Source of the DNA: a phage | Length of the DNA: 64,000 nucleotides | Sequence record: OZ335964.1 | Direction: 5' to 3' (one strand) | Translations under genes and position numbers: made by a program | Part shown: positions 3,599 to 41,402 of the stretch, piece by piece | Position numbering within the stretch: the stretch's first letter is position 1 | How the letters are laid out: each line of letters starts with the position of its first letter | The notes under the pieces: model-generated | What the model saw: only the letters and a program-made list of their open reading frames with translations | What the model was told of the DNA's origin: nothing | Databases searched by the model: none

Positions 3599-5068
3599 CT
3601 ATTCCCCATTACCATTATACTTTCTTTGCTTAGTTATCCACACTCTAACCATTTCTACTGATTCGCCGTCAGACGGATCAAGAGTTTTTCCTTTTTTCTT
3701 CATGCGGTACTTAAATCCGTTAAATCTTGCATTCTCTTGCTCGTTAAAGTCGAACATCTTTTTAAATGATTTTCGCCCTTTACGCTCACCACATTCTAGC
3801 GGAATCATTCGGTCTGTTATTACATTGGCATTAGGTAGAAACGTTTTTAGATAATCCACCAACGCCCAATCAGGAACATATAGATTAACATTCTCCTTGC
3901 TCTCGTTGTCTCTCAGGTTACAACGCAAACATAATTGAAATGCTGGTTCCAGATAATCAGACACATGACGCGCTTTCAAAAACTCGTTTGTCGGGAGATC
4001 ACAACTATTAGCAAGACCTTTTAAAATATCAATCTCCCATCGTTGAGGGTTAAAGCTGAACATCACAGCAACATTTTTATGATGAATGTAAGAGTTAAGA
4101 CCATAAGATCCGTAAGGTATCCGCTCACCAATACCATTTGTGCACGCTTCTCGGTCCCGATTCACGGTATAAATGAAGTCATCACCACATTCATTTTTAA
4201 CCATATCAACAAGACGTTCAAAGGTATTGTTTGTTTCTGACTGGTGACGCGACCATCGTTCAGAGTCCGTCATAAGGATGATGTTAACTCTATCTGTATT
4301 TTTATACTCTTTGAAATATAGTCTGGATTCTAGCGCACTCGGAACAAAATCGCAATTTGCATAGTATCGTAGATACTTCCCACTATATGTATCAAAGAGA
4401 TTTGCACATGCTATCGTAACCTTTTTAAAGTCTCCCCACGTACCGTGTTTGTTATCGTTCAAGAAAACAATTTTCGACCCATTCTTCCGGTGTCCTTCGT
4501 TATGTTTTACCATAACGTTGATTTTCTTCTCTAATAACGCCTCATAAAGCCCTCTAAGCGAAGAATCGATCATATCAGTACCATCCTTCGCACTTTCTAT
4601 CTTTTCTTTGATAGCGGACTTCTCAGAGTCTTTTAGAACTAAGTTCTGTAGGCATTCCGATTCGTCGGCGATTGGTTCGCAATGCTTCGTGATAAGTTCA
4701 AGATTAGACTTAAACGGATACTCATTAAATTCAACCAGTTGAGGAACTTCATCAATGTAAAGAGCATAATCACCAAACATTTTTGAACGTTCCATATTAG
4801 ATAACGCTGTATGTGTAATGAATATCACATCAGCACCGTCTTTAACTGATTGCATTATCGACGCTTGCACTGTCTTAAGGCTTCTTAGTCGTGTGCTATC
4901 AATCAAGACAGCACGACCGCCCATTCTTTTAAACTTATTGTAAGATTGTTCACTTAAAACACGAGATGGCGAAGCAATAACCGCTTTTTCTTTTGTCTCT
5001 AGGACGTGGGAAAGTATAGCATCAGTTTTCCCCGCCGCTGGCAATGCGATTAATGTTTCAATCTTCAT
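3599..5068 (-). CDS. P-loop NTPase of unknown function (Walker A ALPAAGKT, Walker B ALYIDE)
   Basis: 489 aa; Walker A/B motifs read directly; sits after gp55, next to the slot where T4 has a-gt; no family assignment possible without search. Confidence 0.6.
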   Translation of the reverse strand: MKIETLIALPAAGKTDAILSHVLETKEKAVIASPSRVLSEQSYNKFKRMGGRAVLIDSTRLRSLKTVQASIMQSVKDGADVIFITHTALSNMERSKMFGDYALYIDEVPQLVEFNEYPFKSNLELITKHCEPIADESECLQNLVLKDSEKSAIKEKIESAKDGTDMIDSSLRGLYEALLEKKINVMVKHNEGHRKNGSKIVFLNDNKHGTWGDFKKVTIACANLFDTYSGKYLRYYANCDFVPSALESRLYFKEYKNTDRVNIILMTDSERWSRHQSETNNTFERLVDMVKNECGDDFIYTVNRDREACTNGIGERIPYGSYGLNSYIHHKNVAVMFSFNPQRWEIDILKGLANSCDLPTNEFLKARHVSDYLEPAFQLCLRCNLRDNESKENVNLYVPDWALVDYLKTFLPNANVITDRMIPLECGERKGRKSFKKMFDFNEQENARFNGFKYRMKKKGKTLDPSDGESVEMVRVWITKQRKYNGNGE

Positions 5069-27085: not shown

Positions 27086-27276
27086 AGATGACTCCAATAT
27101 AATCGACATTTACATTTAGGGCAATGCGGTTCTTTAATATAATACCCGTCTGTCTTTGGAACACTAACAGGAGCGGTTTTTATATTGTATTCAGTGAAAC
27201 AACGAAAACAAGTTACGTTTTCTACAGACTGACGTTTCACCCAATCACCGGAATAGAGATCATTTTTATTTGTCAT
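27082..27276 (-). CDS. Cys-rich small protein (zinc-ribbon-like)
   Basis: ATG at 27276; CFRCF...HCPKCKC. Confidence 0.45.
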   Translation of the reverse strand: MTNKNDLYSGDWVKRQSVENVTCFRCFTEYNIKTAPVSVPKTDGYYIKEPHCPKCKCRLYWSHL

Positions 27277-27721
27277 ATTCAACCACCACAATGTTAATGT
27301 CTGGAGTAGCAATATTAATGATCTCTTCTACACATTCCCACTCAAGGCCACCGATACCGCAACCGATTTTAGGAATATAGAAAGGCTGTATAGCACCTTC
27401 AAAAACATCATTGATAGTCTCAAATCCTTTCAGGATAGCACCATATTCAGCATTTGGACCCGGTCGGAATTGGGTATAGAGATTCACCCCGCACCAGTTA
27501 TAACCATTAACTTGATGCGTCCAGACACTAAACCCACCCAGCTTTTCTACCTTACCGCGAGAAGTTTGCTTGTCAATTTCTAACGCTTGCGGGAACTCTT
27601 TCGCGATATCCGCAGCAATACCAGCGCCCATAGTATGAAAACAATTACAACCATGAATTAAATGACCGTTTCCTTGTTTAAACAGGGCGATGAGATCGCC
27701 CTTTACAGTATCAATAATCAT
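27266..27721 (-). CDS. macro-domain-like protein (putative ADP-ribose binding/processing)
   Basis: 151 aa; HGCNCFHTMGAGIAADI resembles the macro-domain N..N...G.G(V/I) loop. Confidence 0.55.
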   Translation of the reverse strand: MIIDTVKGDLIALFKQGNGHLIHGCNCFHTMGAGIAADIAKEFPQALEIDKQTSRGKVEKLGGFSVWTHQVNGYNWCGVNLYTQFRPGPNAEYGAILKGFETINDVFEGAIQPFYIPKIGCGIGGLEWECVEEIINIATPDINIVVVEYDK

Positions 27722-29203: not shown

Positions 29204-29542
29204 TTATTCTCCTTTCTTAAACAAATTGCGAAGCCAGTATACAAACGGGATTTCTTTAAACTTGAACTTGTCAATAGTTAATTCTTTAGTAGCAAGATGA
29301 ATACCATAAGCATCATGTGTCACGATATGCCATTTTCTATAGCCCAAATGTGAACAACCGTCTGAATCTAGGTTAATAAGAGTTTCTCGCTCACTAGGAT
29401 TATTTTTCCACAATTTTGTAACCGGGTCGCACATAATTCGACCTAGCGTACCATGAATAATCTCACAACGGTAAAGTTTTCCAGCAGTGAGATAGGCGCA
29501 CCCGTCATAGTCGGTATAAACAAACACTTCTTTAACACTCAT
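29204..29542 (-). CDS. small paralog (C.HL.G..W family), double-domain member
   Basis: ATG at 29542; DYDGCAYLTAGKLY and DSDGCSHLGYRKWHIV. Confidence 0.5.
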   Translation of the reverse strand: MSVKEVFVYTDYDGCAYLTAGKLYRCEIIHGTLGRIMCDPVTKLWKNNPSERETLINLDSDGCSHLGYRKWHIVTHDAYGIHLATKELTIDKFKFKEIPFVYWLRNLFKKGE

Positions 29543-29573
29543 TTTAATACTCCTTTGTTGTTTCGATGGGGGT

Positions 29574-29602
29574 ATATTACTACCCCCGATCATGTGTGTC
29601 AA
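29574..29602 (-). promoter_or_regulatory. sigma70-like early promoter with stem-loop (TTGACA-N17-TAATAT)
   Basis: minus strand; hairpin GGGGGTA..TACCCCC. Confidence 0.45.
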
Positions 29603-29848
29603 CTACTTTTTCAAGAATTTTTTAATTGCGTTCCAAAGACCTTTATTCTCAGGTTGTTTTGGTTCTTCGATCAGCGTCCATGTTCGACCGTCTAAGTGTG
29701 CACAATTTTTAAGGCAAATAAAAATCTGGTGTCCCTTATCATCACGGATATAACCACTATTCGCAAATCTTTCATGTGGTGTATATTCATACAGTGTATT
29801 TGGTGTAATATACTTGCGGTTACTATAAGGTGTCATCACATACATCAT
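29603..29848 (-). CDS. small paralog (C.HL.G..W family)
   Basis: ATG at 29848 (ATGA overlap), GGGAG RBS; CAHLDGRTWTLI. Confidence 0.5.
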   Translation of the reverse strand: MMYVMTPYSNRKYITPNTLYEYTPHERFANSGYIRDDKGHQIFICLKNCAHLDGRTWTLIEEPKQPENKGLWNAIKKFLKK

Positions 29849-30039
29849 GGTACTAACTCCCAACGATCACCGCGAAGATGAGAACATCCACCATCAAGAA
29901 GGATCGTAATACGAAACCCCGCATCATCTTCAATATACCCGATAGTCGGTGGATGTTCGTCGTCTCGTGCCGGGGTAAAATCATACATCTTTCCGGGCGT
30001 AATATCTTGTCCTTTATTGCTATTGGTATAAACTTGCAT
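29845..30039 (-). CDS. small paralog (C.HL.G..W family)
   Basis: 64 aa; CSHLRGDRWELV. Confidence 0.5.
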   Translation of the reverse strand: MQVYTNSNKGQDITPGKMYDFTPARDDEHPPTIGYIEDDAGFRITILLDGGCSHLRGDRWELVP

Positions 30040-30060: not shown

Positions 30061-30759
30061 CTAACCACGGGTATAGTGTTCCAGAACAACGGTCAGATGA
30101 ATATATTCTAATAAATCTTTCCAAAAGTCAACATCTGGTTCTTCCGGCATACCGTTTTTCTTTGCCTCTTCACGCGCGAGTTTAACACGCTCGTAGAGAT
30201 CTTTCAATTCTTCCCGCACATTATCAAAGGTTCTTTCTCCTAACTTACACGCTAAAATAGAAGAACGTCGCGCGAGTGGGAATTGTAGATCACCTGTCTG
30301 ATAGATTTCAAGTAGCTGATAACCAACACGCAGAGCATGAGAAAGATCTTTCCAGTTACTGAAATACTTTTCAGATTTTGCTACCTGCTTTTTGAGATAA
30401 CCAGACAAACCCCACATCCCAACATGATAGAATTTATCGCGATGTGTTCGGATGTATTCCCATTCTCTGGAGGATTCAATCAACATGTTACTAGGCGCGT
30501 GCACCATGTCAATAGCGCCAATATCACCTTTACATGCCAGATTGATAAACCGTTTTAGACTGAACATATTAACGTCAATATCGTCTTTGGTGTTCTTGAT
30601 ACCTTGACCGCTAGTGCTTTGGTCATAGTGTTCTTTCATCGTTCCTAAGATAATTTCTTTCGCAGTCGGAACAAAGATACCACGATAATCTTTATCGGAA
30701 TTTTCAGTATCAAGACCGTATAAGTGAGATCCGAAGACCATTTTAACCATTGTATGCAT
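30061..30759 (-). CDS. Pol-beta-superfamily nucleotidyltransferase (putative)
   Basis: 232 aa; FGSHLYGLDTENSDKDYRGIF = GS...G...SD.D nucleotidyltransferase motif near N-terminus. Confidence 0.6.
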   Translation of the reverse strand: MHTMVKMVFGSHLYGLDTENSDKDYRGIFVPTAKEIILGTMKEHYDQSTSGQGIKNTKDDIDVNMFSLKRFINLACKGDIGAIDMVHAPSNMLIESSREWEYIRTHRDKFYHVGMWGLSGYLKKQVAKSEKYFSNWKDLSHALRVGYQLLEIYQTGDLQFPLARRSSILACKLGERTFDNVREELKDLYERVKLAREEAKKNGMPEEPDVDFWKDLLEYIHLTVVLEHYTRG

Positions 30760-30801
30760 AATTAAACCCTCAGTTGATTAAGAGATTGCATCATATCATC
30801 A

Positions 30802-30835
30802 TAAAACGAAAAAGCCAACCCTTTTCGGATTGGCT
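30802..30835 (-). terminator. intrinsic terminator after GrcA-like gene
   Basis: AGCCAAUCC..GGGUUGGCU hairpin + U-run on minus strand. Confidence 0.65.
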
Positions 30836-30845
30836 TGATGAAAAA

Positions 30846-31262
30846 TTAGAGAGATTCGGTAAAGGTGCGCGAAATAACATCACGTTGTTGGTCTGGAGTC
30901 AGACTATTGAATCTTACGGCATATCCGCTAACGCGAATGGTTAGTTGCGGATACTTATCAGGATTAGCAACCGCATCAAGAAGAAGATCGCGACTCATCA
31001 CATTGATATTCGCGTGCTGACCTCCTTCGACAACCGGAGCACCAGTATCTACAATAACAGGACGGAAGCTAGTTGTGTGCAGTGCCAGCGAATCGACGTC
31101 TTCTGCGGTGATCACATGGTCTTCTGCGAAAGTTTTACTAACAATTACTTTAGCGCCGATCAGTGCTTTCGGTTCGGATACCAGAATCATAGGCGCGAAA
31201 TGTCCACCAATAATAGTACCTTTATGCTCACCTTTCATGATTTGAATTGCTTTAAATTCCAT
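30846..31262 (-). CDS. grcA: autonomous glycyl radical cofactor GrcA/YfiD-like protein
   Basis: 138 aa; C-terminus [33 protein letters not shown] matches remembered E. coli GrcA/PflB glycyl radical domain. Confidence 0.85.
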
Positions 31263-40259: not shown

Positions 40260-41402
40260 TTAACTATTGATCATATCAATGACGTTTTGTAGCTCTGATA
40301 TGGATAGCGTTTCTGTATATCCATCGGGCATATCTTCTTTACTAACATAGAAACCTTTATACTTTTTCTTTATTGCACATTCCATAGAAAGAGCATCATC
40401 ACCGTTATCGTATTTTTTATAAAATGTCAACTCATGACGAAATATAGATTTTGAAGATTGGTTTTGTATTCTTTTTATTAATCTGTTGTTGGTTATACCA
40501 AATTTTATAGCAACCGCAACATCTTCTTTGTATAAAGTTTGTACATAAATGTATGCAGGTTTATTCCTCTTAAATCCATGATTGCTACACATAGGGCAAC
40601 CGCTATTTTTTGATACGTAGTCTCCTAAGTTTGGCGTAAATTCATGTCCGCTACTACAACGCATTACCAATTTTGTTTTTAGCATTCCTCTATACTCACC
40701 GCCAACAAAATCAACAAATGTATCACCTTTATCAATCGCCTTATCTGTTATTTCCTTTACTACTTGCTCAGTTGACTTCTTGTTTTTACCTGAACATAGT
40801 TTACATCTAGATCCATTAACTAAAAACGAGTGACCAGATGCAGTATATTCATGTCCATTAGGACATTTAACTAAGATATTTCTTTCATAAAAATCTTTAT
40901 AATCAGACACATAGCCAATAACTTCGTGGTCTTTTTGGGCATTCCTCATCTCTGTTAGCAACTCTTCGCTATTCCAGCGTTTACCCTTAACGCAGAGACA
41001 ACCATGACCTTGATAAAGATATATAAATTTCTTAGTAAAGTTTTTGTTACAGTCAGGGCAGTGCATTAGTAATTCTGTCATTTGACCTGTATACCCTTTA
41101 GGAATATCGATCAATGTGTATTTTCCGCATATTGTCTTTAATGCATCATCTATTCTTTCTTTGGTCCAGCGTAAGCGACCAGTGCATTCATGACATTTTA
41201 CACCCAGTCTAAGAGTATCTAAACTAAATATAGTTGACGTATGTCCTTTATCACATTTTAACTTAAATCTAGTATCCTTTGCGTTGGTGTATTCTCCAAC
41301 TAGACCATACCATTCATAACCACATGGGATATGTTCTTTTACCTTCTCTAGATATACACCGAACGGTCTAGGAACTGAATTAGGTTTTCTTTCTTTAGTC
41401 AT
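40260..41402 (-). CDS. multi-zinc-ribbon protein with C-terminal GIY-YIG-like (T5orf172-type) nuclease domain; probable free-standing homing-endonuclease-like gene
   Basis: 380 aa; four about 45 aa Cys modules (CDKGH..CHEC, CPDC, CPNGH..CKLC, CSSGH..CPMC) then KPAYIYVQ...KFGITNNRLIKR; inserted between gp3 and gp2. Confidence 0.5.
   Translation of the reverse strand: MTKERKPNSVPRPFGVYLEKVKEHIPCGYEWYGLVGEYTNAKDTRFKLKCDKGHTSTIFSLDTLRLGVKCHECTGRLRWTKERIDDALKTICGKYTLIDIPKGYTGQMTELLMHCPDCNKNFTKKFIYLYQGHGCLCVKGKRWNSEELLTEMRNAQKDHEVIGYVSDYKDFYERNILVKCPNGHEYTASGHSFLVNGSRCKLCSGKNKKSTEQVVKEITDKAIDKGDTFVDFVGGEYRGMLKTKLVMRCSSGHEFTPNLGDYVSKNSGCPMCSNHGFKRNKPAYIYVQTLYKEDVAVAIKFGITNNRLIKRIQNQSSKSIFRHELTFYKKYDNGDDALSMECAIKKKYKGFYVSKEDMPDGYTETLSISELQNVIDMINS

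Follow-up and report, generated by a model that had tools for sequence, protein, structure and literature searches.

Which substrate does a small phage nucleotidyltransferase (NTase) act on, and is it still active in a form that lacks about 100 residues of its T4 relative? The question is raised by a gene on the minus strand of a 64,000-nucleotide stretch of phage DNA from sequence record OZ335964.1 (the window), to which all coordinates refer unless a locus or contig is named. A first-pass annotation, made from the sequence alone, had described the product as a Pol-beta-superfamily NTase of unknown substrate. The gene is the Krischvirus orthologue of T4 nrdC.11, already annotated and an ordinary member of a known family, RlaP. 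We consider it probable, at roughly 0.6, that the product is an active RlaP Pol-beta NTase that refills nucleotides lost from cleaved tRNA before the break is sealed by the RNA ligase Rnl1.

The gene and its family

The gene and the elements within it and directly 5' of it are as follows.

30061..30759, minus strand: coding sequence of the RlaP-family NTase (short-form NrdC.11 orthologue), 232 amino acids, stop codon included
30688..30732, minus strand: Pol-beta NTase motif G-S-x3-G-x5-S-D-x-D, codons G10-D24, with the metal-binding aspartates D22 and D24
30574..30585, minus strand: DDID, codons D59-D62; D62 opens strand 61-67 of the AlphaFold2 model
30370..30375, minus strand: predicted deletion junction S129/E130, where T4-type proteins carry a YG-x-KGSR segment and an alpha/beta insertion of about 100-105 residues
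30328..30351, minus strand: K-x3-H-x2-R, codons K137-R144, on the first long helix past the deletion junction (helix 136-155 in the model)
30767..30771, minus strand: Shine-Dalgarno sequence GAGGG, 7 nt 5' of the NTase ATG, read from the sequence
30790..30818, minus strand: candidate sigma-70-like promoter, TTGGCT-17-TATGAT with an upstream TG, directly 5' of the gene, from a consensus scan only
30812..30836, minus strand: terminator-like hairpin with a 10 bp stem and a T run, predicted to close the GrcA-like gene that precedes the NTase gene, from a consensus scan only

The open reading frame (ORF) proposed at 30061-30759 was confirmed, with an ATG at 30757-30759, a TAA at 30061-30063 and a good ribosome-binding site. 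The antisense ORFs in the ORF list are short, and nothing about them points to real genes. An Rfam search of 27-34 kb found no match. The promoter-like site and the hairpin are consensus matches only; they are candidate, predicted elements and no proof of function.

The protein matched PF10127 (RlaP) with 53.7 bits against a gathering cut-off of 23 (E 3.1e-14), residues 7-191 aligning with positions 24-198 of the 249 profile positions, and phrog_388 ('nucleotidyltransferase') with E 1.8e-79. The claim of a Pol-beta-fold NTase is borne out by these matches, which lie far beyond chance and make the protein a PF10127/RlaP member and an orthologue of T4 NrdC.11; pfam10127-like RNA-repair enzymes had been among the families proposed for comparison. 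A profile run against 1.8 billion representatives returned 6949 homologues at E<=1e-3, and tblastn found a relative in 1724 phage genomes, including T4 (45% identity) and actinophages (23-28% identity). NCBIfam contained no match for the protein, and PADLOC, searched for defence-system NTases, gave nothing meaningful. A sequence search of the PDB with the protein and the family profile returned chance-level matches only (haemoglobin, SAMTOR, DNA glycosylases).

An intact active site

We aligned 41 RlaP sequences, comprising canonical RtcB-linked, Bacillaceae, actinophage and NrdC.11-clade members. Twelve residues were conserved in at least 38 of the 41, and the window protein has every one of them (G10, S11, G15, S21, D22, D24, D60, D62, G78, K137, H141 and R144). 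The peptide quoted in the first-pass annotation, FGSHLYGLDTENSDKDYRGIF, corresponds to residues 9-29, in which G10-S11, G15, S21-D22 and D24 fit the pattern hGS-x3-G-x5-SD-x-D exactly. G10, S11, G15 and D24 are invariant in the alignment, and S21 and D22 nearly so. In the AlphaFold2 model the motif runs from strand 2-9 through the start of a helix to strand 23-30.

D62 occurs in all 41 sequences and D60 in 39; by analogy with the standard Pol-beta topology, D62 is the probable third catalytic carboxylate. Each residue of the catalytic set (G10-S11, D22, D24 and D62, together with D60) is conserved in 39-41 of the 41 members. The helical domain carries a family signature of its own, K-x3-H-x2-R, with K137 and R144 in all 41 sequences and H141 in 38, and the published description of the PfRlaP structure suggests that this signature probably lines the substrate cleft. 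A lack of conserved catalytic aspartates on proper alignment had been named as the observation that would speak against an NTase; the aspartates are present and conserved. That the protein is an RlaP with an intact active site is, in our judgement, practically certain.

Conservation in Krischvirus

The 5 kb around the NTase gene are 96-97% identical to those of 59 RB49/Phi1-like T4-type coliphages of the genus Krischvirus. In Phi1 a gene of identical length is annotated nrdC.11, 'nucleotidyltransferase'. All 59 records carry the NTase gene, with at least 95% protein identity. The window and Phi1 genes differ by 11 synonymous substitutions and 1 non-synonymous substitution (dN/dS 0.023), which indicates strong purifying selection.

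The T4 NrdC.11 protein (336 residues) shares phrog_388 and the order of N-terminal NTase and C-terminal helical domains with the window protein, and is 45% identical to it over 96% of the latter's length, in two aligned pieces. In a neighbour-joining (NJ) tree the window protein is nested in the T4 NrdC.11 clade, and the gene is an accessory gene in both phages. The T4 protein differs in carrying about 100-105 residues that are missing from the window protein, and its gene has different neighbours: a homing-endonuclease gene and a functionally uncharacterised ORF, in place of the GrcA-like gene, small paralogous ORFs and regB found in the window.

Structure and the missing insertion

An AlphaFold2 model built from a 54-sequence alignment reached a pLDDT of 92.7 and a pTM of 0.88. 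It consists of a Pol-beta NTase domain (strands 2-9, 23-30, 44-48 and 61-67), a helical domain (98-201) and a terminal helix (210-230), and its confidence bears out the helical domain that had been placed after the N-terminal motif. The order of the domains is that described for the PfRlaP crystal structure, the comparison being by description and of the order only.

At the junction S129/E130 the T4-type proteins contain the YG-x-KGSR segment together with a seven-stranded beta unit flanked by two helices, as judged from the alignments and from a model of a long form, in which the region comprises helix 137-148, strands 154-208 and helix 213-235. A 57%-identical homologue of 234 residues, P0002, encoded in a syntenic metagenomic contig, has the same short architecture. 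Among the best 150 representatives P0002 was the only short form; the other 148 contain the insertion, judged by length and single-stretch matches. In the NJ tree (no bootstrap) the two short proteins are nested in the long-form NrdC.11 clade, and the canonical short RlaPs lie farther out. Because long forms are the successive outgroups of the two short proteins, the window protein and P0002 most likely lost the insertion of about 100 residues secondarily.

The size of the protein had been thought small for an NTase of this kind. Within the family as a whole this does not hold, since canonical RlaPs have about 240-280 residues, but within the NrdC.11 clade (about 305-390 residues) the protein is anomalous. 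The loss, as predicted from the alignments, restores the insertion-free architecture of the canonical RlaPs. Canonical paralogues from RtcB clusters match PF10127 with 240 bits and also lack the KGSR segment, and its absence from the window protein is therefore no evidence of inactivity. The sole new element here is this naturally minimised NrdC.11 form without the clade-specific insertion. A 242-residue NrdC.11-like protein of Zavarzinella formosa (locus L026, 5971-6699), also without the insertion, groups with the long forms in the NJ tree, which suggests a putative independent loss.

RNA-repair contexts of the clade

Gene contexts were scanned using one genome per bacterial species, which returned 80 loci; neighbours within 4 kb were clustered, and recurrent clusters were annotated with Pfam. 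Genes of the NrdC.11 clade in bacteria and metagenome-assembled genomes, which encode the long form, are found in clusters of two types, in which the genes share a strand and are closely spaced or overlap. The first comprises genes for Ro60 (TROVE+vWA), RtcB, an NrdC.11-like protein and a canonical RlaP. All four genes are present on the same strand in locus L039 (1861-7781). Ro60 is missing from locus L031 (1770-4895), in which RtcB is present, and in locus L049 (2238-5873) Ro60 is present and RtcB-like ORFs occur only on the opposite strand.

The second type, from Campylobacterota, comprises genes for a CCA-adding/PolyA_pol-type enzyme, an NrdC.11-like protein and RtcB (locus L067, 464-4305; locus L073, 4559-8600), and is partial or rearranged in loci L078, L081, L055 and L058. 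The occurrence of NrdC.11-clade genes in clusters with RtcB, Ro60 and CCA-type enzymes ties the NrdC.11 clade itself, and not only RlaP cluster 1, to RNA repair.

Long NrdC.11-like proteins and canonical RlaPs are encoded side by side in L039, L031 and L049, and the presence of two RlaPs per cluster suggests that their specificities are distinct. Among phages, Gordonia phage Octobien14 has a short RlaP gene within about 4 kb downstream of genes for polynucleotide kinase and RNA ligase, beside a tRNA cluster. No ligase gene was found within 5 kb of the RlaP gene of Mycobacteriophage Aziz. Adjacency to an RNA ligase is typical of the RlaP family and not required.

Proposed reaction

The name RlaP goes back to Burroughs & Aravind (2016), who, as quoted in later papers, proposed that these genes go with those of RNA ligases and that their products put back what cleaved RNAs have lost, ahead of ligation. 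The Pseudomonas enzymes PfRlaP and PaRlaP were reported to add 1-2 nucleoside monophosphates (NMP) or deoxynucleoside monophosphates (dNMP) to RNA 3'-OH ends, and not to DNA or protein (Carruthers, Fatma, Huang; bioRxiv 10.64898/2025.12.29.696909, December 2025). According to this preprint they prefer Mn2+, favour the broken anticodon-loop end (5' half) of a cleaved-tRNA mimic over the tRNA 3' end, and partly rescue the aminoacylation of a tRNA lacking one anticodon-loop nucleotide. Their genes sit between rtcB and rtcA and belong to cluster 1a; T4 NrdC.11 falls in cluster 5, with no function assigned (bioRxiv 10.64898/2025.12.29.696909). The first-pass wording 'unknown substrate' is thus in part out of date: the substrate of these two family members is an RNA 3'-OH.

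PfRlaP and PaRlaP share with the window protein the Pfam family, the order of NTase domain, helical domain and terminal helix, and the conserved catalytic aspartates; judging from alignable canonical paralogues in RtcB clusters, they also share its insertion-free architecture. Their genes lie beside that of the RtcB ligase, whereas the window gene is not ligase-adjacent and its genome uses the 5'-phosphate ligase Rnl1. The preprint noted that a 3'-OH product is a mismatch for RtcB systems and fits a 5'-phosphate ligase such as Rnl1 (bioRxiv 10.64898/2025.12.29.696909). Both pseT and rnlA occur in Phi1 and in 59/59 Krischvirus records.

The proposal starts from what was established here, namely the family membership, the intact active site, the purifying selection, the fold, the RNA-repair contexts of the clade and the co-presence of pseT and rnlA. 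In the reaction that we propose, the NTase domain (G10-S11, D22, D24, D62) would bind two divalent metal ions, probably Mn2+, together with a nucleoside triphosphate (NTP). The other wall of the cleft would be made up of the helical domain, with K137, H141 and R144, and of the C-terminal helix; the cleft would hold the RNA 3'-OH end, to which one or two nucleotides would be added without a template. Family membership is what leads us to infer that the phage enzyme catalyses the same reaction as the Pseudomonas RlaPs. Its targets would be tRNAs of the host, and perhaps further RNAs, cut by host ribonuclease defences with the loss of one or more nucleotides. PseT would remove the 2',3'-cyclic or 3' phosphate and phosphorylate the 5' end, the RlaP enzyme would refill the missing nucleotide(s), and Rnl1 (RnlA) would seal the break. 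Anticodon nucleases of the RloC type, which excise a nucleotide, would thereby be defeated. The trimmed-tRNA targets and the partnership with PseT and Rnl1 are suggested by context and co-occurrence.

If this is correct, T4-type phages would own a three-enzyme tRNA repair pathway, made up of PseT, NrdC.11/RlaP and Rnl1, which could reverse both simple anticodon cuts and cuts with nucleotide excision of the RloC type and would extend the classic account of PrrC and T4 repair. The minimised, confidently modelled Krischvirus enzyme of 232 residues would be convenient for biochemistry, and the short form would offer a natural test of whether T4 NrdC.11 needs its insertion of about 100 residues for activity or for the choice of substrate only. 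As the result of a genome scan the finding is unsurprising: the gene is annotated, the family is in Pfam and the chemistry has been reported.

Several points weigh against the refilling of cleaved tRNA. We know of no nucleotide-trimming host nuclease that has been tied to Krischvirus-type phages. A tRNA scan found no tRNA genes in the 64-kb window. The NTase gene lies about 76 kb from pseT and rnlA (in Phi1), with no RNA ligase gene adjacent, and the T4 gene shows no synteny with RNA-repair genes either. Laboratory T4 tolerates the deletion of nrdC.11, and any role is therefore conditional. The biochemistry of the family comes from an unreviewed preprint on cluster-1 enzymes, and T4 NrdC.11 belongs to a different sequence cluster. 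Without the insertion and KGSR segment of its own clade, the short form may have a substrate range different from that of the T4 enzyme, although cluster-1-type RlaPs also lack KGSR.

Alternative explanations

The enzyme might instead serve general RNA 3'-end tailing or maintenance of the tRNA 3' end (CCA), adding 1-2 nt to the 3' ends of mRNA fragments left by RegB cleavage and PseT dephosphorylation, or restoring trimmed tRNA 3' termini. The NTase gene precedes regB by 0.8 kb on the same strand (RegB matches PF10715 with E 3e-48), the Campylobacterota gene of the clade directly adjoins a gene of the CCA-adding/poly(A) polymerase type, and the Pseudomonas RlaPs, which discriminate little among NTPs, label numerous RNAs of E. 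coli, among them species of rRNA size and of full-length tRNA size (bioRxiv 10.64898/2025.12.29.696909). The proximity to regB is not kept in T4, however, and conserved linkage of the two genes was rejected for this reason. On the cleaved-tRNA mimic RlaP favours the anticodon-loop break, not the tRNA 3' end, and the RtcB and Ro60 contexts point to the repair of breaks. We regard tailing as unlikely. A decaying or inactive remnant, in which an internal deletion of about 100 residues destroyed the function and left a relic ORF, would explain why the insertion and the YG-x-KGSR segment, nearly invariant in the NrdC.11 clade, are missing, and would agree with the dispensability of the T4 gene in the laboratory. 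It was rejected, as scarcely conceivable, on the dN/dS of 0.023 and on the retention of all residues invariant across the family. The presence of the gene in 59/59 Krischvirus genomes, the persistence of the short form at 57% identity in a second lineage, the confident folded model and the lack of YG-x-KGSR in cluster-1-type canonical RlaPs of RtcB clusters speak against it as well.

The remaining explanations concern substrates other than a broken RNA. An NTase acting on protein or on small molecules, either an MntA-like AMPylase neutralising a HEPN RNase toxin or an ANT/Lnu-like modifier of metabolites or antibiotics, is suggested by the best Foldseek matches, kanamycin ANT(4'), LinB and ANT(9). 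The TM-scores are low (0.38-0.46; about 0.4 for ANT(4') and the ANT/Lnu enzymes) at identities of 11-13% (11-12% for the latter), and the shared architecture, a Pol-beta NTase domain with a HEPN-like helical domain, is generic to KNTase-like enzymes. ANT(4') and ANT/Lnu enzymes have small-molecule substrates and were not found by sequence search, E. coli proteins and DNA are not RlaP substrates (bioRxiv 10.64898/2025.12.29.696909), and the K137/H141/R144 signature and the RNA-repair contexts are in keeping with a nucleic acid as the substrate, so that we consider such an activity very improbable. The idea of a CD-NTase, or of an enzyme that modifies or sequesters defence-signalling nucleotides, found no backing: no Pfam or PADLOC match to such families was obtained, and no CD-NTase was among the best fold matches listed. 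Hailong HalB (PDB 9dbh/9dbj) resembles the window protein in size (217 residues) and in the position of its catalytic aspartates (D21/D23 against D22/D24). It is a template-independent polymerase of bacterial defence that extends a hydroxyl with (d)NMPs and makes long protein-primed oligo(dA), with the HalA channel as its partner. A HalB-like phage polymerase would make free or protein-primed oligo(deoxy)nucleotides, for example as a decoy that holds a Hailong-type DNA-gated channel shut or as another mimic of a nucleic-acid signal, and RlaP does use dATP efficiently on RNA primers (bioRxiv 10.64898/2025.12.29.696909). The two proteins are 13% identical, no sequence match to HalB was obtained even by profile at E<=10, PADLOC gave no match, and the window protein is clearly an RlaP by sequence. 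Moreover, the Pseudomonas RlaPs add 1-2 nucleotides only and do not label protein (bioRxiv 10.64898/2025.12.29.696909), and the contexts are those of RNA repair, no HalA-like channel partner having been seen in those examined; we find a HalB-like polymerase barely credible. A bolder version has NrdC.11-type enzymes in general making short untemplated oligo(deoxy)nucleotides (free, RNA-primed or protein-primed) as anti-immunity decoys or signals, for example by replenishing Hailong oligo(dA), and not repairing tRNA; it comes to mind because HalB is the nearest solved fold relative and RlaPs accept deoxynucleotides, and we give it a very slim chance. In a milder alternative, loss of the insertion may have retargeted the short form to an RNA end different from that used by T4 NrdC.11.

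Neighbouring genes

The same-strand neighbours of the NTase gene are the GrcA-like Vs.6 gene upstream and, downstream, three small paralogous ORFs followed by regB, vs.1, vs and tk.4. Other features of the region are as follows.

27266-27721, minus strand: Tk.4, a Macro-domain protein (PF01661, E 2.4e-6), annotated merely as 'phosphatase' in Phi1
29204-30039, minus strand: three tandem paralogous small ORFs (phrog_6261/phrog_15978), function not assigned, directly downstream of the NTase gene
30846-31262, minus strand: Vs.6, a GrcA/YfiD-like autonomous glycyl-radical cofactor of 138 residues, whose C-terminus matches PF01228
37771-38241, minus strand: Acb1 (T4 57B homologue), an anti-CBASS cyclic-nucleotide phosphodiesterase of 156 residues with two H-x-T/S motifs (PF23474, E 1.5e-51)
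40260-41402, minus strand: ORF of 380 residues with repeated units containing Cys-x2-Cys/His; the equivalent Phi1 ORF130.1 is annotated 'endonuclease'

A neighbourhood with RegB and a 2H phosphoesterase had been pointed out earlier. RegB is indeed close, but the sole 2H phosphoesterase is the anti-CBASS protein Acb1/57B, about 7 kb away, and was rejected as a partner in RNA repair. The Phi1 counterpart of Acb1 is annotated 'RNA ligase'.

Vs.6 is encoded directly upstream of the NTase gene; in Phi1, nrdD and nrdG are annotated elsewhere in the genome. The three small paralogous ORFs have in common the motif GYI-DD-G..I.I.L..C(A/S)HL.G..W, and two copies of them follow the 57%-identical short-form NTase gene in contig L088 (5278-5752). 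In this contig an HNH/NUMOD4 homing-endonuclease gene (3951-4547) is located between the GrcA-like and NTase genes; the corresponding position in the window is a short intergenic region with the terminator-like hairpin and the promoter-like site only. The ORF at 40260-41402 is possibly a mobile homing endonuclease located between genes 3 and 2.
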